DNA of 64,000 bases, from assembly GCA_964446735.1 (NCBI GenBank), contig CAYUQB010000002.1:18516-82515 (forward strand), given 5' to 3'. Shown piece by piece: positions 26,852 through 48,028 of this stretch. A program made the position numbers and the translations under genes. The notes under the pieces were generated by a model. That model ran no database searches and was not told where the DNA came from. It saw only the letters and a list, made by a program, of their open reading frames with translations. Source of the stretch: an uncultured Candidatus Saccharibacteria bacterium (lineage in GTDB: Bacteria; Patescibacteriota; Minisyncoccia; Phycocordibacterales; Phycocordibacteraceae). The first letter of the stretch is position 1, and each line of letters begins with the position of its first letter.

Positions 26852-27658
26852 ATGGATGAACTTATTCTCGATGACAAGAAATATCTCTCGTCAAAGCGCG
26901 CCGCCCAAGTCACTGGCTACGCGAAGGATTATGTAGGGCAACTCTGCCGCGAGGGCCGCATCACTGCCCGCCTTGTAGGGCGAAATTGGTACGTTCTTGA
27001 GGACTCACTTCTAGAACATCGATTTGGTGCAGAAGAAGCAGAAGAGAAAACGCAAAAACCTCCAGAAAAAAAGGTCCAGGAAACCTGGGGAGCTCCACGA
27101 TATACAGCAGAAGCGCCAATCTTAGTCCCAGAAATCCCCATAAAACAGGTACAGGAACCCGTTCAGGACGTCGCAGAGTCCTCAAAGGTGCTCGTAGACA
27201 TGCAATCTGCCTGGCAAGAATGGTTTGATCAGCAGGGAAATGAGGAGAAGCTCCTTCCTGATGCGAGCCCGATGCTTCTGGAGGCCTCTGAAGAACCTGT
27301 TTCTTTGCCTGCACCGGAAGCTGAGGAGGAGGTTCCGGTACATATTGACCGTCACAGGGAGCCTCTACAGACCTCAGAGACTGTTGTTGAGCAGCAGCGG
27401 TATATTCCCGCAACGATAACGAAAAGCTACGTACAGCCAAAAATAAGACATACAGGGGATAGCTACGGGCGGGGAGGCACAATGCGAGAGAAGAGAGGGG
27501 GTGTTACGCCGCTTATCCGGGTAGCACTACTTACGATTAGCGGGTTGGCCGTTACGATAACGGTCATAGGAAGTGGTTTGAGTGACGTATATCTTCGGGA
27601 CATCGCAAGCTTGCCAATAACGAGCTTTTTTGCAGGCGTAAAAGACATTGAAAAATAA
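26852..27658 (+). CDS. bitopic membrane protein: N-terminal excisionase-like HTH (HTH_17-like) module, acidic/Pro-rich linker, single C-terminal TM helix; short paralog of the giant protein N-terminus
   Basis: Residues 10-55 (LSSKRAAQVTGYAKDYVGQLCREGRITARLVGRNWYVLEDSLLE) align with residues 12-57 of the 4,937-aa protein (GY..DY..LCREG.I....GR.W.V...SLE). TM helix LIRVALLTISGLAVTITVIGSGL near C-terminus. Confidence 0.55.
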   Translation: MDELILDDKKYLSSKRAAQVTGYAKDYVGQLCREGRITARLVGRNWYVLEDSLLEHRFGAEEAEEKTQKPPEKKVQETWGAPRYTAEAPILVPEIPIKQVQEPVQDVAESSKVLVDMQSAWQEWFDQQGNEEKLLPDASPMLLEASEEPVSLPAPEAEEEVPVHIDRHREPLQTSETVVEQQRYIPATITKSYVQPKIRHTGDSYGRGGTMREKRGGVTPLIRVALLTISGLAVTITVIGSGLSDVYLRDIASLPITSFFAGVKDIEK

Positions 27659-27659
27659 A

Positions 27660-27688
27660 CTGAACTCGTCTCGTTCAGACGAGTTCAG
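27660..27688 (+). terminator. hairpin terminator (12-bp stem)
   Basis: CTGAACTCGTCT-CGTTC-AGACGAGTTCAG immediately after stop of 26852..27658. Confidence 0.55.
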
Positions 27689-28352
27689 CATTTATGATAG
27701 ATATCATTCTGAATCATCTTGAACACCAGAGTGAAGTAGAGAATCTACGGATCTAAGGATTTAAATCGTGAATCTAGTGCCAAAGTAGGCTGATTTAGCG
27801 TATCTCGTCAGTAATCGCTCAGAGTTGCGCTTTTCTTACATGTGGCAAATATCTCTCTCCATGGCGCAAAAGTGCATCGAGGGATGTTAAGTCTGGCGGG
27901 AGCAGGCTTAGGATGCATCGGAATGATCGAACAGAAACATAAAGCCATGGAAAATATTGTGCGCACTTATAACGAAGAAAATACAAAGCATTTATTAGTC
28001 TTTTCGGATGTTCGAATTGCCGAGTCTACGATTTAATCAAGGCGTGTAATCTCTTGGGTAGCTCCTCATTTGAGCAGAAGTGCTCGTAATTTCGCAAGAA
28101 ATCCTTTTAGAAAATATACAAAAGCGCAAATTAGGATCTCAAAGCTTCTCCAAATCAAATATGTGCATCATTTGCGTCAATCTTTCGAGTCTAGAGCGCA
28201 TTTCTAGCCCTGTTCAGGCATATATTCGCTGTGGAGTTGGTGATTGAAAGATTAATTTCCATAGCGATCGAAATCAGTCGCCTGATTGAACTTTCTACGA
28301 AAAATTTCTTGAGAAAACTTTCATTATTTATCCACAAAGGAAAGCGCGTCAG

Positions 28353-28390
28353 TATCCGAAATAGGAGATAGAATTTACTTAATTCGGATA
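28353..28390 (+). promoter_or_regulatory. inverted repeat spanning the 5' leader/RBS region of the giant gene
   Basis: TATCCGAA-N22-TTCGGATA enclosing AGGAG, ending 6 nt before ATG 28397. Confidence 0.3.
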
Positions 28391-28396
28391 TCCGAC

Positions 28397-31300
28397 ATGT
28401 CCCTTCCACTCGATAAAAATTTCATCCCAAATAAGGTAGCGAGTGAATTGTCCGGATACAACTCGGACTACATCGCTCGACTTTGTCGTGAAGGAAAAAT
28501 CGAGGGTACGCAAATCGGTCGCGCATGGTTCGTAAATCGCGAGTCGCTAGAAAAGTTCATCAAGCAACAGGACACGCGCAAGAAGGAAATCGCGCGTGAA
28601 CTCTCTGCAGCTCGCGAACGCGAGTATTCTGCACGTCAGAATGCCGCAACTGAAGTAAAAGAAGTCAAGGAAGTACGCATTTCTACGGAGACTTCGATTC
28701 CAAAGGCCAAGCTCATCCCTTCGCAGATTGCACCGCTGCAGGCAGTAATTCACCGACCAGTACATGTGCGCGTAAAAGCTCGCAGTCCGCGCCTTTCGGA
28801 GGTTCACCCAACACTTCGCCCAGGATTCGCACTCGCTCTTACTGCACTCGTCTTGATGATCTCTGTATACGCTGCGGAGAGCGGACTCGTAAACAATTTT
28901 GCCTCACGTGTCATTACGTCAGCAATGCGCACTCACGCTGATGCGCCTGAACTTCCGTTGCGAAGCGCGTTTGCCATTCGTGGCATTGGTGAACATCTTG
29001 CACTTGGGACTTCACATCTCGTCACCGGCGCGCCAAAAGTGTATGAACGTGGCCTCATGGCACTGGTGCGGACACCTGCAGATTCTGCTGCAGCTGTTGC
29101 AACGGTCACGACAACTCCGGAACACGGAATCGGTGAGCGCGTTGCGCTTACGACCTACCGTGGCATCACTCGCTTTTTCAGTAACGCTACCGACCGGCTC
29201 GCAGTCTTCTTTGGATTTAAAAGTCCGAACATCGCGGTGCTTCCATTCGAGGCTGCCAGCGCACTTCATCCCTCGACCAATCTTCCCGCACCAACATCAT
29301 CTGGTGAGTATCGACCCACGACGCAAGGTATTACCACCGTCAACTACCTCACGGGAGTTTCGAGTGAGTACGTCGATAGCTACGTCTCCTCGTATGTAAC
29401 CAATGCACTTCGTGGTGTACGCGAGCAGATCGGACGTGATGTGCTGGATAGTAATGCGGTAAAGCGCAGCCGTAGTTCATCGAGCGGAAGCTCTTCAGGT
29501 GGAGCAGCAACCTCGGTGAATGGCGCGGTGGTAGCAACCTCGCTCACGCTCTCTGGTATCACTGGTTCTACGCAGTGTCTCCAAGTTGATACTTCAGGCG
29601 TCGTGTCCGGGACAGGATCCGCCTGTGGTGCAGGCGGCAGCGGAATCACTGGGCTTAAGGGTCAGTATTCAAGTACACAGACAGGCGCAACTCAGACCTT
29701 CGCGACGTCGAGTGATACCAACCTCACACTTACAATCACTTCTTCAGGAGACACGCATACTTTCACGCCGGGTTGGACTGGCGTACTTTCAGTAGCACGG
29801 GGCGGGCTCGGGCTCTCTGCCGTTACTGCCAACGGACTCCTTATCGGAAATTCTGCAGGCACTGGGTACACAAGTGTTGCAACCAGCTCGCTCGGCCTTT
29901 CAACTTCCGACATCAGCGAAGGCAGCAATCTCTACTACACGACTGCACGCTTTGCTGCATCGCTCGCTGGTACTACCACTGACGCACTTGCTGAAGGAGC
30001 GATCAATCGGTACTACACTGACGCACGCGCACGCGCAGCCTACAGTACGACTGCAACTGGTCTCTCATACAGCAGTGCCAGTGGCGTACTCTCGCTCTCG
30101 AGCGGCTACAACATTCCACTCACCGCATCGACCACGAACTGGAATTCTTTCTACGACACACCCTCGACGCGTATCACTGCTGGTACCAATCTTTCCTGGA
30201 GCGGCAACACACTCAACGGTCCGGCTGACTCAACCATTCGAGGACTATTCTCAGGCACCTACCCAGTTAGCTACGACAGTGGCACGGGAGCCTTCAGTCT
30301 TGCGTTTGGTACCACTACTTCAAACACCTGGGCAGGCACACAGACGTTCACCAACACTCCAGTTCTCGGTACGCTCACCGGACTCGTAGGATCAAACAAC
30401 GGTAGCCTCTATCAAATCGCCACCTCTTCCAACTTCGTTACATCGATCGCGCAAAGTTTCGGTTCTGCACAGACCGGTGCCGTCACACTCGCAACAAGTT
30501 CTGCCGCGACCTGGAATGGAGTGACCTTCACTAACTCGATCACTAACTCTGGCGGCACGTTCACCTTCACGCCGGCACTCTCTGGTACGCTCGCGGTCGC
30601 AGGTGGCGGCACCGCCACCACCACCTTCTACAACGGTGGCGTGGTCTTCTCTGACGGCACCAAACTCACCCAAGCAGCCGCCGCAAGCAACTTCTTCTGG
30701 GACAACACCAACAACCGTCTTGGTCTTGGCACCTCTTCTCCATGGGGTCAGCTCTCGATCAATCCGAATGGCATTAGTGGACCAGCGTTTGCAATTGGCT
30801 CTTCTACCGACACCCTCTTCTCCATTACCAGTGGCGGACACATAACAATCGGCACATCCACACCCGCATCAACCAACGGAATAACCCTCACGACAACAGC
30901 AGGTACCGCAGCCCCGATCCTGTACATGTATCGAAACGATAGTTCAGTAACCGCAAGCGAGTCCCTGGGTGCAATTTACTTCGACAGTAACGATGGCCCG
31001 GTGAGTACAAACGATGCTGCGGTAGCTATCCTGGCCCAAGCCGCAGAAGTGCATGGAAGCACCGCGAAAGGTGGACAACTCATTTTCCAGACTAAATCGA
31101 TTGGAACAGGTCCTAATAGTAGTTCCGACGAACGTTTCCGAATTACCGCAAGTAATACCAGCGGTTTCAGTACCTCATCTCCGTATGCGACGCTCTCAAT
31201 TCACACGAACAAGGATGTAACGAATAGAACCCTTTTTGCAATCGGCTCATCGACAGCTTCCGCGACCTCAACGCTCTTTAGTATTACGAACACCGGTTCG

Positions 31301-34300
31301 ACTACTCTCTTCCAACTCCCAAGTTCGGTACTGACTACGAATGAGAATGGCACCATTGTCGGTACCACATCGGTTGGCATTACTTACGGCGGTACCGGCA
31401 TCACTAGCTACACTTCCGGTGATCTTCTCTACGCTAACAGCAGCGGCATCCTCGCAAAGCTTGGAATTGGTTCGGCCGGTCAGGTGCTCAAGGTCACCGG
31501 TGGACTACCTGTATGGGGTGCCGATCTTACGACTGGCGGCGGCGGCGGTGCCGGCGCGTGGGCAACAACGAGTGATAGTCTTGCTGTCTACCCGACCGAC
31601 ACTTCAGACGTCATCATTGTCGGCAACAGCGCGACTAGTACGCTCACCAGTATTTTCGAAGTGCATGGCAAGTCGTACTTCTCAAATTTCCTCGGTATCG
31701 GCACGACGAACCCTTCGACACAACTCTCGGTACAAGGTGATGCGCTCTTCTCGGGTAATCTCTCACTTGCAAACCTTACTGCAACTGGAACGATCTCAAC
31801 CACAAATCTCACGGTAGGTACCCTTAACGGACCACTTCATGCGAACAATGGCGTCGTTTCAGCAACCACGTCTATTGGTGTGCTTTACGGCGGTACAGGT
31901 CTTACGACCGCTCCATCGTACGGACAGCTTTTACTCGGTAACAGCAGTAGTGGCTATACACTCACCGCAACTTCTTCGTTGGGACTCCAGTCGGTTCTCC
32001 AGGGTACCCAAGGTCAGGTCGCATATTTCTCAGACACAAACACTGCGGTCGGTACCTCAAGCATTTTCATCGGAACAAATACGAATGTCGGTATCGGTTC
32101 CTCGTCGCCAAGCGCGAGACTAAGTATTCTCGGTGCAGATGCTGCATCTTCGGGAGCGACTGCACCCCATGCGCTGTATGTACGGGGTGGTACTGGTGGG
32201 TCGACTAGCGGGTTCGGTGGCCCCATAACACTTGTTGGAGGCGCGGCAGGGGTGGCGACCTCAAATGGAGGTACGGTGACCATTGTCTCTGGCTCGTCAT
32301 TTGCAGGACTGCCTGGGGCAGAAATCGAACTGACCGGTTCAGCGAATAGCGCTGGTGGTGGTCTCACGTTCACCGGTGGGAATGGCAGTATCCTTGGAGG
32401 CGGGTTCACATTCACTAGCGGAGATGGTCAGTCGGGCGGTTCATACTACTTCACCTCAGGCGATGGCTCCTTGAATGGTGGTGACTTCAACTTCACAAGT
32501 GGTGCCGCGACTTCTTCCGGAAGCGGTGGACAATTCACTTTCACAGGCGGTGTCGCAAGTTCTACAACTGCAAACGCAACGGGCGGTGGCTTTACCGTCA
32601 CCGGTGGAGCTGCAAGTTCTACGATCTCGACTGTCCACGGTGGTTCCATTCAACTGACCGGCGGCTCGGGTGGTACCGGTGCACTTACGGTAGGAAGTGG
32701 AGGGAATATTGTCCTAAACGGAGGTGCTGCGGGTGTCGCAGGCGGTTCGGTAGGGAACGTGCTTCTCGCTGGGCTACGTGGCAAGGTGGGTATCGGTTCA
32801 AGTAGTCCCTATGCGCTCCTCTCACTGCATGCTTCCAGCACCGCGACCACACCAATGTTGTTTGCAATTAGTTCTTCGACCTCTACGTTTGCGACGTCAT
32901 CGCTGTTCTCCATCAACAATGTCGGTTCTACCACCCTCTTCCAGCTTCCAAGTTCGGTGCTTACCACAAATCAGAATGGAACTATCGTCGGCACCACTTC
33001 AATTGGTGTTACGTACGGTGGTACTGGTCTCACGAGTGGCCCATCGTACGGCCAGTTGCTTGTAGGTAACGCGTCCGCTGGGTATTCACTCACTGCAACG
33101 AGTTCACTCGGACTGGTTACATCAGTGAACGCATCCGGTGGCACTACCGGTCTTTCATTCTCGGGCGGCCCCATCACCTCGTCAGGCACACTTACTCTTT
33201 CTGGGACACTTGGACTTGCGAACGGCGGCACCGCCACCACCACCTTCTACTCCGGTGGCGTGGTCTTCTCCGACGGTGCTCGCCTCACCCAAGCTTCCTC
33301 CACCAGTGACTTCTTCTGGGACTCAACTAACAAGCGTCTTGGTCTTGGCACGTCTACTCCATGGGGCCAACTCTCCATTAACCCCAATGGTATTAGTGGA
33401 CCAGCGTTTGCAATTGGCAGTACCACTAACACGAGCTTTGTGGTGACGAATGGGGGATATGTGGGGATTGGAAGCGCGGTGCCGACCAACGCGCTTACGG
33501 TTGTTGCGAGCTCAACTTCTGTGACGAGCACTTTCCCGTTTGACGACACACAGCTTGAAATTGCAGCAACCTCTTCAAGTTCCGGTTCACTCAATATTGG
33601 TTTGAATTCGAGACAATCACGCTACTACATAGTTGGTAACTCGGGCAATCTGACGTCCAACGATATGTATATTGGTGTTGACGGATCAAGTGATGGATTC
33701 GGAAAGGTTCACATCATCACCGGGTTTGCAGGTGGATCGGTACCACGTATTACTGCCACACGTGATGGTCAGGTGGGTATTGGTACGACTTCTCCCTACG
33801 CAAAATTCGCTGTTCACGCCGCTAATGCTGAAACCAATCGTGTCCTCTTTGCTATTGGTTCCTCAACCGCTTCCGCAACTACCACTCTCTTCTCTGTAAA
33901 CAACATCGGCTCCACAACGCTCTTCCAGCTTCCGAGTTCGGTACTGACTACGAATGAGAATGGCACGATTGTCGGTACCACATCGGTGGGCGTAACGTAC
34001 GGCGGTACGGGACTTTCAACAGCACCCGCCTATGGCCAGCTTCTGGTGGGTAACTCTAGCGGTGGGTATACCCTTACGGCAACCAGCTCACTTGGGCTTG
34101 GTACTGGTAATGGCACCGTCACTTCTGTAGATGCTTCAGGTGGCACTACCGGTCTTTCATTCTCGGGCGGCCCCATCACCTCGTCAGGCACACTTACTCT
34201 TTCTGGGACACTTGGACTTGCGAACGGCGGCACCGCCACCACCACCTTCTACTCCGGTGGCGTGGTCTTCTCCGACGGTGCTCGCCTCACGCAGGCATCT

Positions 34301-37300
34301 TCCACCGGTGACTTCTTCTGGGACTCAACCAACAAACGCCTGGGACTCGGTACCTCAACACCGTTTGCGAAACTTTCTGTCAATCAAAACACGAGCGGTC
34401 CAAGCACGATACCGGCCTTTGTCGTGGGTGCATCTGATTCAACGAAGTTTATCGTCACAGCAAGTGGAAATGTGGGTGTTGGAACTTCTTCCGCTGCGTA
34501 TACACTCGATGTAGGCGGGTTCGCAAACGTCGATAAATTCTCGGGCTACAAACAGGATACGTTCACCATCCTCACTGCATCGTCCACATCACTTTCAACA
34601 TTGGTCGGTATTAATGCAGGCGCGTCACTCACTCAAGGCGCTCGCTATGCAACCGTCCTTGGCTACGGCGCACTCCAGAACACAACGTCCGGCACCTATA
34701 ACACCGCAGTTGGCTATCAAACATTAAATGCGAACTCGACCGGTGCGCAGAACACTGCACTTGGTGCATTCGCACTCACAAATAATTTCACCGGCGCAGA
34801 CAATGTCGCACTTGGCTATGGTGCGAGCTACTTCAATGCATATGCGACGCGCACCGTTGCTATCGGTAGCGAAGCAGGTGAGGGCGTCGGCAACTATGCA
34901 AACCAGGGTGGAGTACTCGTAGGCTACAAGTCTGGCTTCAACCTGACCGATGGTTCCAACTACAATACACTTCTTGGCTACCAATCAGGCTTTGGTATCA
35001 CCACGGGTGCCAACAACATCATCATCGGTGCAGACTCTGATGGGAGTGGTGGAAACTCAAATCTCACCACCGGATCGGGAAATATTCAGATCGGGTACAA
35101 TATCTCGCTCCCAAGCGCGACCGCAAGCAATCAACTCAACATCGGAAATCTTATCTACGGTACCGGAGTGAGTGGCACGGCTTTTGTACCATCGACAGGT
35201 CGTATCGGTATCGCTTCTACGTCACCGTTCGCAAAGCTCTCAGTACATGCGAACAATGGAGATACTAACCCCGCGCTGTTTGCGATAGGTTCTTCAACAG
35301 CAAGTGCGACAACCACTCATTTCCTGGTCACGCGTACCGGCGAAGTCGGCATCGGTACTACTTCTCCGAGCGCGCAGCTTGCACTTTCCGGTGTATCAGG
35401 AACAACCGCAGCAGCACCGGATTTCCTAGGCCTGTTTGGAGGCACAGGAGGCGCGCCAGTCACCGGTGACGCTGGCGCTGGTTCGAGTGGCAGGATTGGT
35501 GCAGGTGCAGGTGGAGCGACAGCTAACGGGAATGGTGGGGCAGGCGGCTCGCTCACCTTCGCTGCCGGTACGGGCGGTGCGTCGTCTCAAACAACCGGTA
35601 TCTCCGGCGCAGGCGGTTCACTTAGCCTTTCGGCCGGTAACGGCGGTGATGGCAGTGAACTGGTGTCGACTCCTGGTAACGGCGGTGCGATTACCATTAC
35701 TGCTGGTTCTGCTGGAGGAAATGGAGCAGCATCTGGCGGTAGTGTGACTATCAATCCGGGTGCAAAGGGTACTACGGGGAGTGATGGAAACGTTCTCATC
35801 GCAACACTTCGTGGGAAAACCGGTATTGGTACTACTTCACCGTACGCAAAGCTCTCCATCCACTCAAATAATGGCGATACCAATAGGACGCTTTTTGCTA
35901 TCGGTTCTTCAACGGCTTCTGCCACGACCACACTCTTCAGTATTACGAACACTGGTGACGCAACACTTCTAGGTACTTCTACTGCTGCAGGTGGTTCCTT
36001 CACGAGACTGACAGTTGGTTCTGATTACTTCACTGATCTTACGGGCACTGGCCTTGCTCTTTCTGGAAGCGCACTTACCCTCGACACAGGAAATGCCAAC
36101 TCTTGGACCGGTACTCAAACGTTTAACACGGTGACCATCAATACTGGATATGTCTTCACCGTTGGAACACTGAATGGTCCTCTGCACGCCAACAACGGAG
36201 TTGTGGCGGCGACAACCTCTATCGGCGTTACGTACGGTGGTACAGGCCTCACGACTGCACCGAGTTACGGTCAAATTCTTGTGGGTAACGCGTCCTCCGG
36301 CTATACCCTCACCGCAACCTCATCACTTGGCCTCCCGACTGGTTCGGGTGCAGCAGGACGTGTCGCGTTCTGGGATGGTACGGGCAGTCTGTCCTCAAAT
36401 GCCAATTTCACTTTCTCCTCGACTAACAGTCAGTTCTCAATTCCAAATAATGGGTGGTATGCAATTGGTGGCAACCTCCTCGGATATGCTTCATCCACAA
36501 ATCAAGCGACGATCTTCGGTCTCGGTGCTGGCGGCAATAACGCAACCACAACTGGAGCCGGAAGTAATCTGACGGCAGTGGGATTCAATGCGCTTAATGC
36601 CATGACGACTGGAGCGAACAACACGGCGGTCGGTTCACTTGCGCTTAGAAGTGCCACAACTGGCGGTGCGAATACGGCGGTCGGTGCGAGTGCGCTCAGT
36701 GCACTTACTACGGGTGGCTTCAACACCGCAGTTGGCTACCTCGCGGGCACCAGCGTAACAACCGGAGCCGGCAACTCGATACTTGGTCACGATGCCGCAG
36801 CCTCACTCACTGTTGGTTGGAATAACACACTCATTGGTCAGTATGCTGGGTACACCATCACGACCGGGTCAGGTAACACCGTGCTTGGCGGTGTCGAAGA
36901 TACAGGAATAAGTAACCTTACGACAGGTGACAACAACATTGCCATTGGACTCAATATTCTGTTCGCGGACGGTACGGCGGATAACCAACTTAACATTGGT
37001 AACTTCATCTTCGGCACCATACCCGCCACAACGACAAACAGTTCACTTCAACTGCCGAAAACCGGCAAACTCGGTATCGCCACCTCTTCTCCGTACGCCA
37101 AACTTTCCATTCACGCGAATAACGGATCAACTGATACCACCCTCTTTGCGATCGGTTCTTCGACCGCAAGTGCTACCTCGACACTCTTTTCCGTTAGTAA
37201 TTCCGGCCAGCTCTCTTCGAATCTCTCGGGAACAACAACACTCTTGCGGGTCGCAGGTCGGGAATTCATCAAGGCGGATACCGCATCACTCAACCTCGCA

Positions 37301-40300
37301 CTCGGCTTTGATCCGCTTCGAGCGCTTACGACCGGAAGCGGGAACATAGCTATCGGTGAGAATGCTGGGTATGGAATTACCACCGGCACGTATAACACCA
37401 GCATCGGATACGGAACACAGAATCAAAACGGTCATTATAATGTGGCGCTCGGATACCAGACCGGCGGAGCTGGCAATAGAGCCGTGGCAGTCGGGTATAA
37501 CGCCTATTCGGATGGACAAGGTGGTATATCAATAGGTGCTGGTGCGAACGCGTTTGGAAGTTCAACTATTGCTGTCGGTTACGGGGCATACGCCAACAAC
37601 ACAGACGGTATTGCACTCGGTAGTGACGTGTTTTCATACGGAACCGCTGCGATCGTGATCGGTGCCTCTGCTTCAAGTGACTCGGGCGCCTCGAGCACTA
37701 TCGCTATCGGTTACAACGCATATGGGGGTGGCACAATTTCTAACACAGTCATTGGCGACACCGCTGGTTTCAACATAGCAGGAAGACGCAATCTTCTTAT
37801 CGGACCGACTGCGTTCGATCCCAATGGTGCTTCAGACGGTGGATTGAGTATTGGCAATCTCATTTTCGGTACACTTCCTGCCACGACCACGGTTGCCTCA
37901 CTACCGCTCACGGGCGCAATCGGTGTTGCTACCACTTCTCCGTATGCAACCCTTTCAGTTCACGCAAACAGCGGCTCAGTAAACACTACGCTCTTCGCGA
38001 TCGGTTCTTCGACCGCGAGTGCCACCTCGACTCTCTTCTCCATTAACAATATCGGCTCCACCACACTCTTCCGTCTCCCAAGTTCAGTCCTTACAACGAA
38101 TGAGAACGGCACAATCGTTGGCACCACATCTGTTGGTGTCACCTATGGCGGTACCGGCCTGGCGACGGCTCCTTCGTACGGTCAACTTCTCCTTGGAAAC
38201 GCATCAAGTGGGTATACACTCACGGCAACGTCCTCTCTCGGTATCGCTATCAGTGATACTACTGGTACGCTCAGTCTTGCTCGTGGCGGCACCGCCACCA
38301 CCACCTTCTACAACGGTGGCGTGGTCTTCTCTGACGGCACCAAACTCACCCAAGCAGCCGCCGCAAGCAACTTCTTCTGGGACAACACGAACAACCGTCT
38401 AGGGCTGGGTACCTCAAGTCCATGGGGCCAGCTCTCCATTAACCCCAATGGCATTAGTGGACCGGCGTTTGCCATCGGGAGTACCACGAGCACAAGTTTT
38501 GTGATTACTAACGCAGGATATGTGGGCATCGGGACGGCAACTCCACAAACCAGCCTCGATATTGATGGAGGTAATGTCCGTATAACGAATCTCTCGGGAA
38601 GTGTACAAAACCTGCTTTCACTCAATAACACGTCAGCGGGAACTGCGGCTGGAAACGCAATTGTATTTAACGGGCCCTCGAGTGTTCAGTATGGAAAAGT
38701 TGAGGTGGCCGCAGATAGTGCAACCAGTCAAACCTATCTTGCGCTCACGGTCCGTGGTGCGAGCGCTGCGTATGAAGCACTTCGTGCGGTGGGTTCGAGC
38801 GGGAGTATTGGTATCGGTACCACCACTCCGAAGTGGAAACTCACTGTTTCCACTTCGACTGCACCGCAACTCACCTTGACTGATGGCTCTGCCACTAATG
38901 CGCCCTTTAACTTCCGTGCCATTAACAACCTTTTGTACTTCTCGACCTCTTCGCCAACTACCTACGCTACCTCAACTCCGTTCTTAAGCTTCGACAGCTC
39001 TACTGCTTCGACCAGTATTCTGAGACTTGATGTGACGGGCACTGGAACCTCTACCTTTGCCAACGGTCTCAATATCGCCAATGGTTGCTATGCCGTGAAC
39101 GGTGTTTGCTTGGTCGGTACGTTCACCAACACGCTCGCTTCAGGCGGCACCGCCACCACCACCTTCTACAACGGTGGCGTGGTCTTCTCTGACGGCACCA
39201 AACTCACCCAAGCAGCCGCCGCAAGCAACTTCTTCTGGGACAACACGAACAACCGTCTCGGACTTGGAACATCGACACCATTTGGTCAGCTCTCCATCGA
39301 TTCGAACGGAATTACTGGTCCTGCGTTTGTTATTGGTTCATCAACCGCCACTCATCTGTTAGTTGAGAATAGTGGAAGAGTGGGTGTTGGTACTACCTCG
39401 CCTGCATCCGCGTATGGATTTAATGTCGGCACAAACTCGTATTTTGGAGCCACTACAACATTCGCTGGAGGTGCTGCTATCGGTGCATTTACCTCGGGGG
39501 GTAAGACAGGTACCTGGATTAATCTTCCAACGACTGGTCCGTCTGGTATTGGTACTGGCGGAGCAGGAAGTAACCCGTTTGTCGCATATGCTGCGTCAGC
39601 CACCGACTGGTTCAACGGTTCAATAATAGGTGACGCTGTGTATCGTAACGCAAACGGAACTCGTATTCTCATGGGCATTAGCAACAATAATGGTACTGCT
39701 CAACCACAGATTATTATTCAAGGTAACGCCTCATCTACCTGGCAAACCAGTTTCGGTACGACTTCACCATGGGGCATGGTCTCGATTGGTTCCCATGGGA
39801 TTGGAGACAAACCGGCGTTTGTCATTGGTTCGTCAACCGCGACTAATTTGATCGTCACCAATAGTGGACGAGTAGGTATTGGCACTAGCTCTCCTACCAG
39901 CATGCTCGCAGTTGGGGGAAACGTGACAATTAGTACTGCTGCAGCAAATAGCGGATTGCTGACCATCTACTCAGAGGACACAGGGTCCCTGTCCAATATG
40001 CAGGGTATCGTCGTTGCTGATCGTCAAAATGCCTACGGATCCTGGCAGACTCCTAGCGGGCTCGATGGAGTTCAGATCGGCGGCGGCGGCGAAGTAACCG
40101 CCTGGAATCAAGACTTCTTTATCAACTACTACTCCACCGGAGATGTGCGGCTTGCTCGCGGCGGCGGAGATGTGTTTGTAGGAAGCTCTCCACCGACAGC
40201 TCGGTTAAGCGTTAAGGGAAGCGCGGGTAGTACGACACCGGTGTTCCTCGTTTCTTCCTCCACGAACGCGAATCTATTTAATGTGCAATCGACTGGATTC

Positions 40301-43210
40301 GTGGGTGTCGGTTCTTCAACTCCGTGGGGTCAGTTCTCAGTGAATGCGTACGCAAGTACTGCACCAGCCTTCGTCGTCGGCAGCTCGAGTGCCACCAGTC
40401 TCGTGGTTTCTAACGGCGGCAATGTCGGTATCGGAACGAGTACGCCAGCACGCGCACTCCACGTCGCAAACTCAGGTGCCAGCTCACAATTCCTCCTCGA
40501 GGATACGGCGGCAGCTGCTGATCAACACATCGGTTCGATTGGGTTCTCACGCGGTGTCTTTAGCTTCAACACCCTTACCGATTCACTCGCAACGACCACT
40601 CGCCTCACCATCGACACCAGTGGCAATGTAGGTATCGCAACGTCTACACCGACCGCAAAGTTCGCGCTTACCGGAAGTGGCACCGGAACCGGTCGTCTCT
40701 TCGTACTTGCGGACTCGGCCAATACCGAACGACTCACCATTCTTGATAACGGAAAGGTAGGTATTGGTACAACCAGTCCAAACTGGCTCCTCTCGGTGTC
40801 AGGAACATCCGGCACTCGCTTCAAGACAACATCGGCTATCCAGAATGCGTTTGTCGTCGAGAATGCGGTTGGCACATCGACATTCCAAGTGGACACGCTT
40901 GATAACAGCGATTCCATCTTCTCGGTCGCGACCTCGTCGGGCAGTACGTACTTCTACGTTGGTGCGTCAGGACGCATTGGCGTAGGCACCACAACGCCGG
41001 GCGCTGCCCTCGATGTCTATAATGGTGCGCTGTGCGTTGATGACAGCTCGCCGACTTGTCAGGACGCTGCGCGTACCGCCGGTACAATCTATGCAGTTTC
41101 AACCTCCATTACCGGCATCGACCTTGCCGAGCGATACCCGACCAAGGATGCAACGCTTGCAGCAGCCGAGATCGTAGCGTTCGATCCTGCAAATCCGGTG
41201 TTTGTGAAGCGTGCTGCTTCAGGCAGCAGTTCGTTCCTCGGTGTCGTATCCACCCAGCCGGGTATTCTCCTCGGCGGCTATAACGACTCCTTATATAAGG
41301 ACGAGGTGAAAGTACCGGTGGCCCTTGCTGGTCGTGTCCCTGTTGCCGTTACGATGGAGGGAGGTGCTATCGACGTTGGTGACTACATCACCATCTCCAG
41401 TACGCCGGGTGTGGGAAAGAAGGCGACTGCGTCAGGCCAGACCATCGGCGTCGCGCTTGAGCCGGCAACCGCTGATGGCACTATCCAGGTATACATCAAA
41501 CCTGAGTATGTATTTGTGCCAAGCCAGCTCGCGATTGATGCTGATACAGGAAATGTCGGTATCGGAGTTGAGAACCCAACTCGTAAGCTTGAAGTGGCAG
41601 GAGATGCATTCTTCTCGGGCTTCCTTACTTCAGATCGATTTGTTGCATCCGGCTCGGGCACTAGCACGCTCCCACGAATTACCACCAATGCCATCGATCT
41701 TGCCGGCCAGTACCTCACTTCGGTTACCGGTACCGGACTCGAACTTTCGGGCGGCATACTCTCGATCGCAACGTCTTCGCTCACCAGTAATCTCTTCGCG
41801 CAGGGCGGCAATTCCTTTGGAACCACGACGGTGCTTGGCACTCGCGATACGCAGGATCTTGCCTTCATGACTGCAAGTTCGACTCGGCTCACTATTACCG
41901 CAGCCGGTAAGGTGGGTATTGGCACCGCGGCTCCCGCGCATGCGCTTGAAGTGGTTGGTGATGTTGCTGCCATTAGCTTCGTAAACACCTCAACTCGTAC
42001 TGCGAAGGAAGATATTACCTATCTCACGCAGGAAGATACGAAGGGTATTCTCGACACGCTTCGAGGCCTCAAGGTTGCCGAGTACCACTACAAGATTGAA
42101 AATCAATCAAATCCGCTCCGGCTTGGACTCATCGCAGAAGAGGCGCCTACTGAAGTACTCTCGCTTGATGGTAAGGGAGTTGATATCTATAAACTCGCAA
42201 CCTTCACCCTTGCCGGTGTCCAGTCGCTTGCAGGCAAAGTCGACACGCTCGAAGCAAAGGTTGCGGATATCGACGCACGACTCGCGCAGCTCGGGGGAGT
42301 AACACTTGCAACTACCAGTACCAGCACGAAAATCGCATCAAGCGGTGTCGGCCTGGGTGACCTTCCAGACGCACTACGCAGCTTCGGAGCATTCATTGGT
42401 AATGGCATCGCACAATTCCAAACACTCGTTGCACGACAATTTGTCGCAAGCAAGGATGCGGACGGCACGTCTTCTGCAGGTGAGGGAACCGTTGCATCAA
42501 CCACCAACTCGACCACCATTGAGAACAAACTGGTACGAGCATCAAGCAAGATCTTCATCACGTTCACGAGCCCAGTGGAGGGTGGGTGGTATCTGGCTGA
42601 TAAGAAGGAGGGAAGCTTCCGGGTGGTGCTGAAGAGCATGCCGGCTGAAGATGTCACGTTTGACTACTTCTTCATCCAGACCGAAGGGCAGCTCGCGGCG
42701 TCCGGCGCAGCGTCTGGCACCACAGACGGCAGCGATACGGAGCCGCCGGTGATTACGCTCAATGGTGAGACCTCTACGTACGTGCCAGTGGGGGAGACAT
42801 ACGTCGATCCTGGCGTGTCAGCGGTGGATGCAGTTGATGGCCCAGTTAGGTACAACCGACAGATAAATGGACAAACGATGGATATCAATGCTCCGCTTGA
42901 TACCTCGCACGAAGCGACCTATACGCTTACCTACGTTGCCTTCGATGCAAAGGGTAACTACGCAAGTGCCACTCGCACCGTCATTGTGGCAGCGCCCGGT
43001 GGTGGGGGAGCAGTACTTCCCGGTGCAACTCCCGAGCCGACACCTGCCCCAGAACCTGCACCGATACCTGAACCTACACCTGAACCTACACCTGAACCTG
43101 CACCAGAGCCAGCTCCGGAGCCAACACCAACTCCCGAGCCGACGCCTGCCCCAGAACCTGCACCGGAACCGGCTCCTGAACCAGCGCCATCCCCAGCTCT
43201 AGAAGGATGA
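28397..43210 (+). CDS. giant (4,937-aa) membrane-anchored fibre/adhesin-like protein with four parts: N-terminal HTH_17-like module and TM helix; Gly/Thr/Ser-rich modular repeat fibre; C-terminal peptidase-S74 intramolecular chaperone domain; DUF5011/Ig-like domain and (PEPT)n tail
   Basis: Single uninterrupted ORF of 14,814 nt. TM helix PGFALALTALVLMISVYAA (about aa 140-160). At least seven copies of the module LFAIGSSTASATSTLFSI-N-GSTTLFQLPSSVLTTNENGTIVGTTSVGVTYGGTGL..YGQLLVGN..GYTLTATSSLGL. NTAxG/AIG repeats (about 34.6-35.2 kb and 36.5-37.9 kb) resemble YadA-head/phage tail-fibre repeats. aa about 4532-4650 STRTAKEDITYL..LRGLKVAEYHYK..RLGLIAEEAP..LEAKVADIDARLAQL match the Peptidase_S74 (endosialidase chaperone) profile including the Ser-x4-Lys dyad. 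aa about 4780-4865 PVITLNGETSTYVPVGETYVDPGVSAVDAVDG...TYTLTYVAFDAKGNYASATRTVIV match DUF5011. C-terminus PEPTPAPEPAPIPEPTPEPTPEP... Confidence 0.85.
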   Translation: MSLPLDKNFIPNKVASELSGYNSDYIARLCREGKIEGTQIGRAWFVNRESLEKFIKQQDTRKKEIARELSAAREREYSARQNAATEVKEVKEVRISTETSIPKAKLIPSQIAPLQAVIHRPVHVRVKARSPRLSEVHPTLRPGFALALTALVLMISVYAAESGLVNNFASRVITSAMRTHADAPELPLRSAFAIRGIGEHLALGTSHLVTGAPKVYERGLMALVRTPADSAAAVATVTTTPEHGIGERVALTTYRGITRFFSNATDRLAVFFGFKSPNIAVLPFEAASALHPSTNLPAPTSSGEYRPTTQGITTVNYLTGVSSEYVDSYVSSYVTNALRGVREQIGRDVLDSNAVKRSRSSSSGSSSGGAATSVNGAVVATSLTLSGITGSTQCLQVDTSGVVSGTGSACGAGGSGITGLKGQYSSTQTGATQTFATSSDTNLTLTITSSGDTHTFTPGWTGVLSVARGGLGLSAVTANGLLIGNSAGTGYTSVATSSLGLSTSDISEGSNLYYTTARFAASLAGTTTDALAEGAINRYYTDARARAAYSTTATGLSYSSASGVLSLSSGYNIPLTASTTNWNSFYDTPSTRITAGTNLSWSGNTLNGPADSTIRGLFSGTYPVSYDSGTGAFSLAFGTTTSNTWAGTQTFTNTPVLGTLTGLVGSNNGSLYQIATSSNFVTSIAQSFGSAQTGAVTLATSSAATWNGVTFTNSITNSGGTFTFTPALSGTLAVAGGGTATTTFYNGGVVFSDGTKLTQAAAASNFFWDNTNNRLGLGTSSPWGQLSINPNGISGPAFAIGSSTDTLFSITSGGHITIGTSTPASTNGITLTTTAGTAAPILYMYRNDSSVTASESLGAIYFDSNDGPVSTNDAAVAILAQAAEVHGSTAKGGQLIFQTKSIGTGPNSSSDERFRITASNTSGFSTSSPYATLSIHTNKDVTNRTLFAIGSSTASATSTLFSITNTGSTTLFQLPSSVLTTNENGTIVGTTSVGITYGGTGITSYTSGDLLYANSSGILAKLGIGSAGQVLKVTGGLPVWGADLTTGGGGGAGAWATTSDSLAVYPTDTSDVIIVGNSATSTLTSIFEVHGKSYFSNFLGIGTTNPSTQLSVQGDALFSGNLSLANLTATGTISTTNLTVGTLNGPLHANNGVVSATTSIGVLYGGTGLTTAPSYGQLLLGNSSSGYTLTATSSLGLQSVLQGTQGQVAYFSDTNTAVGTSSIFIGTNTNVGIGSSSPSARLSILGADAASSGATAPHALYVRGGTGGSTSGFGGPITLVGGAAGVATSNGGTVTIVSGSSFAGLPGAEIELTGSANSAGGGLTFTGGNGSILGGGFTFTSGDGQSGGSYYFTSGDGSLNGGDFNFTSGAATSSGSGGQFTFTGGVASSTTANATGGGFTVTGGAASSTISTVHGGSIQLTGGSGGTGALTVGSGGNIVLNGGAAGVAGGSVGNVLLAGLRGKVGIGSSSPYALLSLHASSTATTPMLFAISSSTSTFATSSLFSINNVGSTTLFQLPSSVLTTNQNGTIVGTTSIGVTYGGTGLTSGPSYGQLLVGNASAGYSLTATSSLGLVTSVNASGGTTGLSFSGGPITSSGTLTLSGTLGLANGGTATTTFYSGGVVFSDGARLTQASSTSDFFWDSTNKRLGLGTSTPWGQLSINPNGISGPAFAIGSTTNTSFVVTNGGYVGIGSAVPTNALTVVASSTSVTSTFPFDDTQLEIAATSSSSGSLNIGLNSRQSRYYIVGNSGNLTSNDMYIGVDGSSDGFGKVHIITGFAGGSVPRITATRDGQVGIGTTSPYAKFAVHAANAETNRVLFAIGSSTASATTTLFSVNNIGSTTLFQLPSSVLTTNENGTIVGTTSVGVTYGGTGLSTAPAYGQLLVGNSSGGYTLTATSSLGLGTGNGTVTSVDASGGTTGLSFSGGPITSSGTLTLSGTLGLANGGTATTTFYSGGVVFSDGARLTQASSTGDFFWDSTNKRLGLGTSTPFAKLSVNQNTSGPSTIPAFVVGASDSTKFIVTASGNVGVGTSSAAYTLDVGGFANVDKFSGYKQDTFTILTASSTSLSTLVGINAGASLTQGARYATVLGYGALQNTTSGTYNTAVGYQTLNANSTGAQNTALGAFALTNNFTGADNVALGYGASYFNAYATRTVAIGSEAGEGVGNYANQGGVLVGYKSGFNLTDGSNYNTLLGYQSGFGITTGANNIIIGADSDGSGGNSNLTTGSGNIQIGYNISLPSATASNQLNIGNLIYGTGVSGTAFVPSTGRIGIASTSPFAKLSVHANNGDTNPALFAIGSSTASATTTHFLVTRTGEVGIGTTSPSAQLALSGVSGTTAAAPDFLGLFGGTGGAPVTGDAGAGSSGRIGAGAGGATANGNGGAGGSLTFAAGTGGASSQTTGISGAGGSLSLSAGNGGDGSELVSTPGNGGAITITAGSAGGNGAASGGSVTINPGAKGTTGSDGNVLIATLRGKTGIGTTSPYAKLSIHSNNGDTNRTLFAIGSSTASATTTLFSITNTGDATLLGTSTAAGGSFTRLTVGSDYFTDLTGTGLALSGSALTLDTGNANSWTGTQTFNTVTINTGYVFTVGTLNGPLHANNGVVAATTSIGVTYGGTGLTTAPSYGQILVGNASSGYTLTATSSLGLPTGSGAAGRVAFWDGTGSLSSNANFTFSSTNSQFSIPNNGWYAIGGNLLGYASSTNQATIFGLGAGGNNATTTGAGSNLTAVGFNALNAMTTGANNTAVGSLALRSATTGGANTAVGASALSALTTGGFNTAVGYLAGTSVTTGAGNSILGHDAAASLTVGWNNTLIGQYAGYTITTGSGNTVLGGVEDTGISNLTTGDNNIAIGLNILFADGTADNQLNIGNFIFGTIPATTTNSSLQLPKTGKLGIATSSPYAKLSIHANNGSTDTTLFAIGSSTASATSTLFSVSNSGQLSSNLSGTTTLLRVAGREFIKADTASLNLALGFDPLRALTTGSGNIAIGENAGYGITTGTYNTSIGYGTQNQNGHYNVALGYQTGGAGNRAVAVGYNAYSDGQGGISIGAGANAFGSSTIAVGYGAYANNTDGIALGSDVFSYGTAAIVIGASASSDSGASSTIAIGYNAYGGGTISNTVIGDTAGFNIAGRRNLLIGPTAFDPNGASDGGLSIGNLIFGTLPATTTVASLPLTGAIGVATTSPYATLSVHANSGSVNTTLFAIGSSTASATSTLFSINNIGSTTLFRLPSSVLTTNENGTIVGTTSVGVTYGGTGLATAPSYGQLLLGNASSGYTLTATSSLGIAISDTTGTLSLARGGTATTTFYNGGVVFSDGTKLTQAAAASNFFWDNTNNRLGLGTSSPWGQLSINPNGISGPAFAIGSTTSTSFVITNAGYVGIGTATPQTSLDIDGGNVRITNLSGSVQNLLSLNNTSAGTAAGNAIVFNGPSSVQYGKVEVAADSATSQTYLALTVRGASAAYEALRAVGSSGSIGIGTTTPKWKLTVSTSTAPQLTLTDGSATNAPFNFRAINNLLYFSTSSPTTYATSTPFLSFDSSTASTSILRLDVTGTGTSTFANGLNIANGCYAVNGVCLVGTFTNTLASGGTATTTFYNGGVVFSDGTKLTQAAAASNFFWDNTNNRLGLGTSTPFGQLSIDSNGITGPAFVIGSSTATHLLVENSGRVGVGTTSPASAYGFNVGTNSYFGATTTFAGGAAIGAFTSGGKTGTWINLPTTGPSGIGTGGAGSNPFVAYAASATDWFNGSIIGDAVYRNANGTRILMGISNNNGTAQPQIIIQGNASSTWQTSFGTTSPWGMVSIGSHGIGDKPAFVIGSSTATNLIVTNSGRVGIGTSSPTSMLAVGGNVTISTAAANSGLLTIYSEDTGSLSNMQGIVVADRQNAYGSWQTPSGLDGVQIGGGGEVTAWNQDFFINYYSTGDVRLARGGGDVFVGSSPPTARLSVKGSAGSTTPVFLVSSSTNANLFNVQSTGFVGVGSSTPWGQFSVNAYASTAPAFVVGSSSATSLVVSNGGNVGIGTSTPARALHVANSGASSQFLLEDTAAAADQHIGSIGFSRGVFSFNTLTDSLATTTRLTIDTSGNVGIATSTPTAKFALTGSGTGTGRLFVLADSANTERLTILDNGKVGIGTTSPNWLLSVSGTSGTRFKTTSAIQNAFVVENAVGTSTFQVDTLDNSDSIFSVATSSGSTYFYVGASGRIGVGTTTPGAALDVYNGALCVDDSSPTCQDAARTAGTIYAVSTSITGIDLAERYPTKDATLAAAEIVAFDPANPVFVKRAASGSSSFLGVVSTQPGILLGGYNDSLYKDEVKVPVALAGRVPVAVTMEGGAIDVGDYITISSTPGVGKKATASGQTIGVALEPATADGTIQVYIKPEYVFVPSQLAIDADTGNVGIGVENPTRKLEVAGDAFFSGFLTSDRFVASGSGTSTLPRITTNAIDLAGQYLTSVTGTGLELSGGILSIATSSLTSNLFAQGGNSFGTTTVLGTRDTQDLAFMTASSTRLTITAAGKVGIGTAAPAHALEVVGDVAAISFVNTSTRTAKEDITYLTQEDTKGILDTLRGLKVAEYHYKIENQSNPLRLGLIAEEAPTEVLSLDGKGVDIYKLATFTLAGVQSLAGKVDTLEAKVADIDARLAQLGGVTLATTSTSTKIASSGVGLGDLPDALRSFGAFIGNGIAQFQTLVARQFVASKDADGTSSAGEGTVASTTNSTTIENKLVRASSKIFITFTSPVEGGWYLADKKEGSFRVVLKSMPAEDVTFDYFFIQTEGQLAASGAASGTTDGSDTEPPVITLNGETSTYVPVGETYVDPGVSAVDAVDGPVRYNRQINGQTMDINAPLDTSHEATYTLTYVAFDAKGNYASATRTVIVAAPGGGGAVLPGATPEPTPAPEPAPIPEPTPEPTPEPAPEPAPEPTPTPEPTPAPEPAPEPAPEPAPSPALEG
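30605..30720 (+). repeat. 116-bp near-perfect direct repeat family, copy 1 of 3 (inside giant ORF)
   Basis: GGCGGCACCGCCACCACCACCTTCTACAACGGTGGCGTGGTCTTCTCTGACGGCACCAAACTCACCCAAGCAGCCGCCGCAAGCAACTTCTTCTGGGACAACAC(C/G)AACAACCGTCT. One mismatch versus copies at 38285..38400 and 39143..39258. Confidence 0.85.
33137..33288 (+). repeat. 152-bp perfect direct repeat, copy 1 (inside giant ORF)
   Basis: Identical to 34139..34290 by direct comparison; encodes GGTTGLSFSGGPITSSGTLTLSGTLGLANGGTATTTFYSGGVVFSDGARL. Confidence 0.9.
34139..34290 (+). repeat. 152-bp perfect direct repeat, copy 2 (inside giant ORF)
   Basis: Identical to 33137..33288; spacing 1,002 bp (334 codons), one protein repeat module. 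Confidence 0.9.
38285..38400 (+). repeat. 116-bp direct repeat family, copy 2 of 3
   Basis: Identical to 39143..39258 over this span; one mismatch versus 30605..30720. Confidence 0.85.
39143..39258 (+). repeat. 116-bp direct repeat family, copy 3 of 3
   Basis: See copies 1 and 2. Confidence 0.85.
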
Positions 43211-43257
43211 TTTACGCTATACTTATTTATGACGTTCGTCTCACCAACCACCTCACC

Positions 43258-44550
43258 ATGAAAACAGTTGCGCTCTTCCTTGCTCTCCTCCTCATGCCTA
43301 TTCAGGCATTTGCGATGAGTCAACCTCTCTTTTCTGCCATAGGTCAGATCTCAGGCGTCTCGGGGTCAACCCGTTACTACGGATGCGGAAATTCTGGAGT
43401 TACAAACTCCTCAATTGCACTAGTCGCACCTCCCCTCTCGGTTGCGGGAGTACTAGATAACCTTCAAGTGTCGACAAGTGCCGCTCCCGGGGCGGGGACT
43501 ACCATTACCTACACCGTCGAAAAGAATGACGTTGACACAACACAGACCTGCCAAATTTCTGACACAGCGACTACCTGTTCGGATGCCGCTCATCCAATAA
43601 CATTCGCAGCCGGCGATACTTGTGGTATTCGCACTCAAGCCACAACCGGTGCTCCAGCAGCAATAGAATCAAATGTTTCCAACTCATTCGTTCCCACCGC
43701 CGACGGTGAAGCGGTTATCACAGGTTCAGGTTCAAGTGCACTAAATAGTGCAACGGGCTATTATGCTGTGTATGGAGATACTGCAACGACCTCCATAACT
43801 CGCGCCTCTACAACCTTTCCTACCAACGGAACAGTCGATAAATTTTACGTTGCACTAAGCGGTACTCCCGGGACGGGCACCTCATATGACTTCACAGTGT
43901 TTAAGAACGGTGTAACAACTGGCATCACCTGCCAGGTTGCTAACACCGCAACAACGTGCAATGACCCAACGAACACTGCATCCTTCTCCGCAGGTGACTC
44001 TATCACCATCCAGGTGGTTCCTACTGGCACACCGACTGCGCGGTCGCCCAAATGGGGTCTTCGCTTCACGCCGACGATAAATGGCGAGAGCGTTTTGTTT
44101 GTTCGTGAACTCAACAATTCAAACGTCACTCGCTACCATGCCATACAAGGCTCTGGGGAGCGCAGCACTAACGAAGTCAACGTGCAGGTGGTAGCACCGC
44201 TCGCGTTCCAGCTGAAGAAACTTTATTTCAACATCGTACACGGTCAACCGACCGCCGGCACCAGCCGTATTCTTACCGTGAGAAAGAACGGTGCCGGTAC
44301 GTCGTTAGGCGGGACACTCACCGATACGGCTGCGTGGGTGACTGATCTTAGCGATACCGTTGACTATGCGGCCGGTGATCTCGTATCTACAGAAATGACC
44401 AACACTGGCTCACCACCCACGGCTGTTGTTGAATTCTGGTCAACGGTTGCGTTCGTAGATCCTGGAACTGCGGCCACGACCCCTACTTCGAAGTTCCGTA
44501 TCTTCGGCGGTAAGTGGAATATTTTTGGGGGCAGCGTATTCCTCCGATAA
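43258..44550 (+). CDS. secreted protein with N-terminal signal peptide and three about 100-aa Thr/Cys-containing repeat domains; unknown function
   Basis: Start placed at MKTVALFLALLLMPIQAFA (signal peptide); the ORF as tracked begins at 43207. Three repeats with pattern ..T(F/V)xKNG..TCQ(I/V)..TATTC(S/N)D....F(A/S)AGD(T/S). Immediately downstream of the giant gene. Confidence 0.5.
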   Translation: MKTVALFLALLLMPIQAFAMSQPLFSAIGQISGVSGSTRYYGCGNSGVTNSSIALVAPPLSVAGVLDNLQVSTSAAPGAGTTITYTVEKNDVDTTQTCQISDTATTCSDAAHPITFAAGDTCGIRTQATTGAPAAIESNVSNSFVPTADGEAVITGSGSSALNSATGYYAVYGDTATTSITRASTTFPTNGTVDKFYVALSGTPGTGTSYDFTVFKNGVTTGITCQVANTATTCNDPTNTASFSAGDSITIQVVPTGTPTARSPKWGLRFTPTINGESVLFVRELNNSNVTRYHAIQGSGERSTNEVNVQVVAPLAFQLKKLYFNIVHGQPTAGTSRILTVRKNGAGTSLGGTLTDTAAWVTDLSDTVDYAAGDLVSTEMTNTGSPPTAVVEFWSTVAFVDPGTAATTPTSKFRIFGGKWNIFGGSVFLR

Positions 44551-44555
44551 TCCCT

Positions 44556-45572: not shown

Positions 45573-45610
45573 AAGCTTGTTAAATAAGGGTTTTCTGAAG
45601 AGTCTCGCTC

Positions 45611-45629
45611 AAAAAGCGGGGCTTTTTTG
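45611..45629 (+). terminator. weak hairpin plus T-tract after gap
   Basis: AAAAAGC-GGG-GCTTTTTT. Confidence 0.35.
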
Positions 45630-48025: not shown

Positions 48026-48028
48026 CTC

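Follow-up and report, generated by a model that had tools for sequence, protein, structure and literature searches.

Identical in-frame tracts on diverged modules of a giant fibre gene in a Parcubacteria chromosome point to intragenic gene conversion

In the cagY gene of Helicobacter pylori, intragenic direct repeats recombine in frame, and the resulting size variants have been demonstrated within hosts (Aras et al. 2003, PMC2194252). Structures are available for the mosaic adhesive trimer (MAT) fibres of Bdellovibrio bacteriovorus (PDB codes 8ojn, 8ond, 8ol4 and 8oml), in which a signal peptide is followed by a conserved, β-rich N-terminal domain of ~130 aa and the catalytic motif is SDxxxK; the Bd2133 construct comprises residues 21–1,031 (Caulton et al. 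2024, PMC10769870). For giant genes in metagenomes, the fragmentation of assemblies by repeats has been documented (West-Roberts et al. 2023, bioRxiv 10.1101/2023.11.21.568195). The gene described here is found in a stretch of 64,000 nt (the window) of contig CAYUQB010000002.1 from the assembly GCA_964446735.1. This giant open reading frame (ORF), at 28397–43210, encodes a fibre-like protein of 4,937 aa, in which Gly, Thr, Ser and Ala make up 52% of the residues, and it contains all of the long exact DNA repeats that are the subject of this analysis. Coordinates given without a contig name are those of the window, and the modules, tracts and domains of the giant ORF and the two ORFs adjoining it are all on the forward (+) strand.

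The exact repeats belong to two families. The first is a pair, in which 33137–33288 equals 34139–34290 as a maximal exact match of 152 nt. The two copies encode aa 1581–1631 (...SGGTTGLSFSGGPITSSGTLTLSGTLGLANGGTATTTFYSGGVVFSDGARL) and aa 1915–1965, each begins at codon position 1 of the ORF, and their spacing is 1002 nt, or 334 codons. An earlier note, made from the letters of this DNA alone, had reported this pair with the same coordinates and codon offset, and the re-measured identity shows both to be correct. The second family is 116 nt long and has three copies, named after the modules that carry them: A1 at 30605–30720 (aa 737–775, GGTATTTFYNGGVVFSDGTKLTQAAAASNFFWDNTNNRL), A4 at 38285–38400 (aa 3297–3335) and A5 at 39143–39258 (aa 3583–3621). 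A4 and A5 are identical over the tract, where the maximal exact match is 116 nt, and A1 departs from them at a single base, offset 104 (30709, C vs G), which is a synonymous ACC/ACG difference; the exact match of A1 to the A4 copy spans 30603–30708 (106 nt). The earlier note had listed three copies with a single mismatch, and its positions and length stand, while the mismatch is confined to one copy, the other two being identical. Besides the pair and the 116-nt family, the window holds only one exact repeat of at least 30 nt, a 32-mer (31322/33935). When the limit is lowered to 20 nt, all 18 exact repeats of the window fall within the giant ORF, and every spacing is divisible by 3.

The tracts are embedded in a modular organization. 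Module A, with the protein start GGTATTTFY.GGVVFSDG..LTQ, is present in five copies in the giant ORF, and module comparison places their starts at 30605 (A1), 33224 (A2), 34226 (A3), 38285 (A4) and 39143 (A5). The module opens with a 27-nt core, GGCGGCACCGCCACCACCACCTTCTAC, which is common to all five copies, including A2 (33224–33424) and A3 (34226–34435). Three larger units, the B-collar-A super-modules, comprise positions 32779–33375, 33766–34377 and 37922–38478. The two copies of the 152-nt tract lie within the units at 32779–33375 and 33766–34377, whereas the third unit, at 37922–38478, shares ~69% nucleotide identity with the other two and its A part, A4, bears a tract of the A1/A5 type. 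Away from the tracts, paralogous module pairs share 64–80% DNA identity, with one higher background value of 85% across a 55-nt stretch of the Pro-rich tail.

The earlier note had proposed that the identity of the copies goes beyond what conservation of the protein needs, and the codon comparison bears this out. Where the two copies share a residue, they also share its codon throughout the tracts (identity 1.00), whereas codon identity outside the tracts is 0.28–0.51; random synonymous choice with the codon usage of the gene predicts 0.32–0.34. Just outside the tracts the synonymous sites are saturated, with a codon identity of 0.35 vs 0.32 for random choice, and directly beyond the 3' end of each tract nearly every third codon position is changed in an almost unaltered protein. 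If synonymous codons were chosen independently according to this usage, the identity observed would arise by chance with P = 3e-27 for the 152-nt tract and P = 1e-17 for the 116-nt tract. Permutation of the mismatches in pairwise module alignments gave a longest run of at most 44–67 nt in 20,000 trials, and the observed identical runs of 152, 116 and 104 nt were never equalled for any of the four tract pairs. Control pairs without a tract gave p = 0.03 (A1/A2) and p = 0.10 (A2/A4) in the same test.

The tract boundaries are sharp. Homology runs on past both edges of the 152-nt tract, so that the copy at 34139–34290 matches its partner unit on either side, and both flanks display older divergence: outside the tract the two units are only ~70% identical, their synonymous sites are saturated, and a 6-codon indel is located upstream. 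In the 116-nt family, the upstream sequence is unrelated among the three copies and the downstream identity is 65–77%; the unrelated upstream sequence means that block duplication cannot explain this family. Moreover, the relationships among the module A copies switch at the 3' boundary. Over nt 0–116 of the module, A1, A4 and A5 group together against A2 and A3, while over nt 116–200 the identity between A4 and A5 falls to 0.65, compared with 0.86 for A2 and A1 and 0.85 for A2 and A4. The relationships of A2 are thus incongruent, as it pairs with A3 inside the tract and with A1 and A4 after it, and the module copies are mosaics.

Saturated flanks around identical tracts indicate that the module duplications are old and the tracts young, and this contrast, together with the abruptness of the boundaries and the switch in relationships, favours conversion over young duplication. 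The identical stretches are therefore likely to be short intragenic gene-conversion tracts laid on anciently duplicated modules of the fibre gene; the recombination mechanism and its recency we infer from these patterns. In the proposed mechanism, non-reciprocal homologous recombination between paralogous modules would copy short patches within the gene. One event, or a few, would have homogenized the 152 nt of the units designated super-module 2 and super-module 3, and further events would have spread a patch of 104–116 nt among three module A copies that lie in unrelated contexts. A4 appears to be an A2-type module, and its first 116 nt may either have been replaced by A1/A5-type sequence or have served as the donor for that type.

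Several points weigh against gene conversion. The 5' edge of the 116-nt family is also the edge of the module homology, and only the 3' boundary is informative. The sole independent contig, the Logan contig L029 (SRR12113420), is 100% identical to 39562–46314 but begins ~300 nt past the last tract; neither reads nor a second assembly cover the repeats. No population variation was seen.

One alternative is an assembly or polishing artefact, in which near-identical copies were merged by bubble-popping or short-read polishing, or in which a wrong path through the repeat graph produced the present order or number of blocks. Such an artefact appears improbable, although the source is a metagenome-assembled contig, with 100% matches of SecA and the downstream ORF on an NCBI contig of 128,410 nt, the independent contig stops short of the repeats, and related giant genes usually terminate at contig ends. 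The earlier note had named the repeats as a source of assembly trouble, and this receives indirect support from the relatives, whose giant genes are cut by contig ends in the loci L001, L002, L004, L010, L013, L020 and L024–L026. In L020 (Parcubacteria C7867-004), where the contig also ends within the giant gene, the frame changes just after a module A copy to give separate calls of 2,834 aa and 539 aa, which is a frameshift or a mis-assembly at the repeat. In L002, a suspiciously perfect tandem duplication of 519 nt (173 codons, in frame) occupies positions 5717–6754 near the start of the related giant gene, between unrelated flanks; it represents a module duplication of very recent date or else a loop in the assembly. 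Since joins at shared coding repeats are always in frame, the intact ORF of the window does not prove the order of its blocks. On the other hand, merging needs copies that are already near-identical, so that the contrast with the saturated flanks would persist. Both ends of the gene are plausible and conserved in relatives, the N-terminus as well as the C-terminal architecture of S74 domain, Ig-like domain and Pro-rich region, and GC content and composition are continuous along the gene.

Selection at the nucleotide level is a second alternative, whether it acts on an embedded DNA or RNA signal (a structured RNA, an internal promoter or a recombination signal) or as extreme codon selection, and it has a very low probability. 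It draws on the conservation of the core of 27–32 nt (GGCGGCACCGCCACCACCACCTTCTACAACGG, 30605–30636 in A1). All five window copies of module A have the same first 32 nt, and the core is near-identical, at 10 of 11 codons, in the four copies of L020 at 5251, 8323, 9811 and 10541. The baseline codon identity between the window and L020, taken from the conserved N-terminus, is 0.36, and synonymous sites are otherwise saturated; given the amino acids, the probability of the core codons is 7e-5. The tracts are also rich in cytosine at the third codon position (C3), the copies of the 116-nt tract being the most C3-rich 38-codon windows of the 4,937-codon gene (0.74 vs 0.33 gene-wide, top 0.2%) and the 152-nt tract being moderately enriched (0.54). 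Against such selection, the two tract families differ by 14–24% across the same module segment, and phage and other homologues use different codons. In particular, the same module in other organisms (L021–L023) is written with different codons, which shows that the nucleotide sequence of the module is not universally constrained. A scan of the window against Rfam gave no match, and folding of the 152-nt tract as RNA is predicted to be unexceptional (z = -1.58). The motif GGTGGTGG, which the core carries on its reverse strand, shows no enrichment outside the modules. It was also considered as a Chi-like hotspot and rejected, as 10 of its 13 occurrences are the modules themselves and it has no genome-wide signal.

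The conservation of the core could be due to codon bias, GC-biased conversion, transfer or a recombination joint. The C3-richness of the 116-nt tracts would fit the hypothesis of GC-biased conversion, or a preferred recombination joint, and other causes are possible. It is a speculative and rather improbable extension that the C3-rich core serves as a preferred joint at which episymbionts from the Candidate Phyla Radiation (CPR), and possibly their phages, shuffle, homogenize and resize the blocks of attachment fibres. If it were true, variation in length and in modules comparable to that of cagY would be built into the gene of an ultra-small symbiont.

The earlier note had left the choice between recent duplication and gene conversion undecided; the data favour conversion, and recent module duplication is contradicted by the saturated flanks and by the switch in relationships at the boundary. 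Were the identical stretches the remnants of very young duplicate units, the precise distance of 334 codons between the 152-nt copies, which lie in two homologous super-modules, would be readily understood, and the perfect 519-nt duplication of L002 indicates that such events may occur in the family. The two units are nevertheless only ~70% identical beyond the 152 nt, with synonymous saturation and an indel, and the 116-nt copies combine unrelated upstream sequence with moderate downstream identity, which makes a recent whole-module duplication highly implausible. A dedicated variation system, either site-specific cassette switching or a diversity-generating retroelement, a type of element that CPR bacteria are known to carry and whose template and variable repeats have a size range that takes in the repeat lengths seen here (~100–150 nt), has a negligible probability, as every copy is coding and belongs to one gene, the only departure from exact identity within a family is one C/G difference, a mismatch pattern that lacks adenine-specific differences and for which the gene was rejected as a retroelement target, and no reverse transcriptase or recombinase is present among the ORFs scanned beside the giant gene, a scan that did not include every ORF of the window.

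Apart from their origin as probable conversion tracts, in-frame direct repeats of this type may mediate the deletion or duplication of whole module blocks, which would change the length of the fibre. Deletion between the two 152-nt copies would remove a block of 334 codons and leave a product of 4,603 aa. For the 116-nt family, the predicted losses are 286 codons between A4 and A5, 2,560 codons between A1 and A4 and 2,846 codons between A1 and A5, with products of 4,651, 2,377 and 2,091 aa, correspondingly. As all repeat spacings are multiples of 3, such events would alter the length and not an on/off state, and phase variation, the term of the earlier note, is the wrong one. A few tens of bp suffice for homologous recombination in E. 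coli, a length that 104–152 nt exceeds, and template switching that does not depend on RecA is just as plausible for repeats of such short length and spacing. The genome, metagenome and viral collections searched contain no same-species sequence spanning the repeats; a mid-gene query retrieved only distant relatives from them, with at most 57% aa identity, or nothing. Exact and degenerate DNA patterns made from the tracts had no match among viral contigs, and a search of a large protein database with a 521-aa segment gave only matches of 911 aa or less, with no full-length giant orthologue.

The giant protein begins with an HTH_17/excisionase-like domain (28439–28570, aa 15–58), which scores 25.8 bits in Pfam, under the gathering cut-off of 27. 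This domain, a fold of the DNA-binding type that would lie on the cytoplasmic side of a surface fibre, shares 63% aa identity with that of L020 and has matches in L016, L005, L002, L013, L010 and L007; at no fewer than seven further loci, related giant genes begin with the same type of N-terminus. The only strongly hydrophobic segment according to the Kyte-Doolittle scale, GFALALTALVLMISVYAAESG (28823–28891, aa ~143–165), is presumed to be a membrane anchor. It is followed by ~4,300 aa of modules rich in Gly, Thr, Ser and Ala, and then by a Peptidase_S74 intramolecular-chaperone domain (41993–42145; PF13884, 23.5 bits vs a cut-off of 22). A Ser-x4-Lys motif, STRTAK, is found at aa 4532–4537 (41990–42007); relative to SDxxxK, the motif retains Ser and Lys, with Thr in the place of Asp. 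The C-terminal part contains a Bact_surface_Ig-like domain (42752–42988, aa 4786–4864, 49–53 bits in Pfam) and a tail rich in Pro, Glu, Thr and Ala with short tandem repeats (43025–43192). This C-terminal architecture recurs in other Parcubacteria proteins, such as P0054, with 37% identity over 343 aa. Several segments match tail-fibre or tail-spike families of PHROG, namely phrog_9942 (E = 9e-22), phrog_4636 (E = 2e-18) and phrog_18983, a tail-fibre C-terminus that coincides with the S74 domain (E = 5.7e-13). An AlphaFold monomer model of the 334-aa unit contains short strands only, and its confidence (pLDDT, predicted local distance difference test, of 55.5) is too low for a fold search. The best functional reading of these sequence features is that of a membrane-anchored adhesion fibre resembling phage tail fibres, which would probably be trimeric.

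Exact in-frame repeats in divergent flanks are also present in the related giant genes of L002, L003, L004, L009, L011, L016, L018 and L020, where they measure 40–519 nt. L020 contains near-identical blocks of ~300 nt at 8171–10050, with exact runs of 44–99 nt around its four module A copies. In a sister species, the SecA of which is 82% identical, the genes follow the same order, Wzy-MurB-SecA-Obg-GatB-HTH protein-giant gene, but the giant gene itself shares only ~26% identity with that of the window, which indicates rapid turnover of the fibre at a stable locus. The contigs of the sister species (L024 16573–22523, L025 9617–15355 and L026 8291–10879) come from three samples, are 100% identical to one another up to their ends, and none of them extends more than 6 kb into the giant gene. 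The divergence of L024 and L025 after 5,729 nt seems to be an effect of the contig end, and a repeat was not detected at that place. Module A (GGTATTTFYNGGVVFSD..KLTQ…PWGQLSVNP…) is also present in the fibre genes of two phage-like contigs, L021 (10001–11596) and L022 (10001–12127), in which it adjoins genes for collagen-like, lysin, YopX, NinG and HNH proteins. This suggests that modules may be shared between Parcubacteria fibres and the tail fibres of presumed phages.

The giant gene is surrounded by chromosomal housekeeping genes, with MurB, SecA, Obg and GatB encoded upstream and GAPDH downstream. SecA is 75–84% identical to that of metagenome-assembled genomes (MAGs), which are mostly Parcubacteria/Paceibacterota where the source names them, and the host DNA is the chromosome of a member of the Parcubacteria, within the CPR. 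The ORF directly upstream (26852–27658) combines an HTH_17-like N-terminus, an acidic linker and a C-terminal hydrophobic helix, and its position is kept in the sister species. Between this ORF and the giant gene lies an unusually long non-coding gap of ~740 nt (27659–28396), with a hairpin directly after the upstream ORF and no match in Rfam. The downstream ORF (43207–44550) encodes 447 aa with a signal-peptide-like N-terminus and overlaps the stop codon of the giant gene (ATGA). It had no family match, and its homologues P0243 and P0244, with 50–57% identity, are located inside operons of phage structural and lysis genes; the downstream ORF is a probable partner of the fibre and probably of phage origin as well.

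The GC content falls from ~0.53 to ~0.42 at ~46 kb, and positions 45600–64000 encode phage functions: AAA_24/phrog_1366, a replication-initiation O-like protein, a ParB-methyltransferase, the small and large terminase subunits and an SU10-like portal. This region is a prophage adjoining GAPDH in the Parcubacteria chromosome. No tRNA or integrase gene was seen in the window. In the independent contig L029, the 3' end of the giant gene is confirmed together with the genes downstream of it and the transition to the low-GC region, and the boundary between host and prophage is reproduced up to 46314. A related prophage is present in L006, where the terminase shares 35% aa identity. The possibility that the giant gene itself belongs to the adjacent prophage was ruled out by its GC content (0.51–0.56 vs 0.42), by the intervening GAPDH gene and by synteny in a species without that context. 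At the other end of the window, 1–20416 form a surface-polysaccharide locus with GT4 glycosyltransferases, a bifunctional ATP-sulfurylase/APS kinase, a NeuB-type synthase of the sialic-acid family, a Wzx-like flippase and a Wzy_C-TPR protein. Cell-envelope functions are thus clustered with the fibre gene.

Attachment to other cells is the presumed lifestyle of Parcubacteria, and their contact organs are most likely giant surface fibres. If the fibre gene is actively homogenized and can be resized, its length and module content could vary within populations, affecting the range of partners or the recognition between phage and host. The present case is a warning that short-read MAGs may contain such genes in truncated or collapsed form or with their parts in the wrong order. 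It also illustrates that synonymous sites alone are sufficient to tell recent conversion apart from old modules. Repetitive genes for surface proteins are already well known to undergo concerted evolution and in-frame recombination; the phenomenon is a familiar route in the evolution of such genes and not a new kind of element, and what is gained is a well-documented case from a lineage that has been little studied, with no new principle.

Among the described systems, the phage S74 fibres and tailspikes, such as endosialidase and the L-shaped fibre of T5, resemble the giant protein in its PHROG matches and through the module A copies of the phage-like contigs. Unlike these, the giant gene is chromosomal, syntenic across species and host-like in GC content, and its product would be anchored in a membrane and not attached to a virion. 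The giant, repeat-rich genes known from metagenomes for predatory or episymbiotic bacteria that are uncultivated are similar in being very long genes for surface proteins whose repeats fragment the assembly, as in the relatives described here. Those genes are mainly from Omnitrophota, encode more than 30,000 aa with other sets of domains, and the paper that described them did not have conversion tracts at the nucleotide level as its topic.

Along with the phage S74 fibres, the MAT fibres of Bdellovibrio are the closest relatives of the protein that have a known structure. The fibre repeats align to solved β-prism segments of MAT fibres (8ojn, E = 1.4e-7; 8ond, E = 2e-5) through the motif RLTI…G.VGIGT..P…L.V, the S74 domain is near the C-terminus in both, and both have a mosaic build similar to that of tail fibres. 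The lifestyle of Parcubacteria likewise depends on contact with other cells. The giant protein is several-fold longer, it has the HTH_17-like domain and one hydrophobic helix in place of the MAT N-terminus, and ~400 aa, comprising a β domain, the Ig-like domain and the Pro-rich tail, follow the Ser-Lys motif of S74. It is described here as MAT-like, but not as a member of the Bdellovibrio MAT family, because the signal peptide and the conserved N-terminal β domain are absent.

For the behaviour of the repeats as DNA, the closest paradigm by analogy is cagY. The protein family and the organism are unrelated to those of the giant fibre gene, and size variants were demonstrated for cagY, while none have been seen here. 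The repeats of cagY are very numerous and located in two regions, whereas the giant gene has two small families, of two and three copies, on old and diverged modules. In both cases, a large gene for a surface protein is rich in direct repeats that give in-frame products, in line with the spacing of all the exact repeats of the window by multiples of 3.

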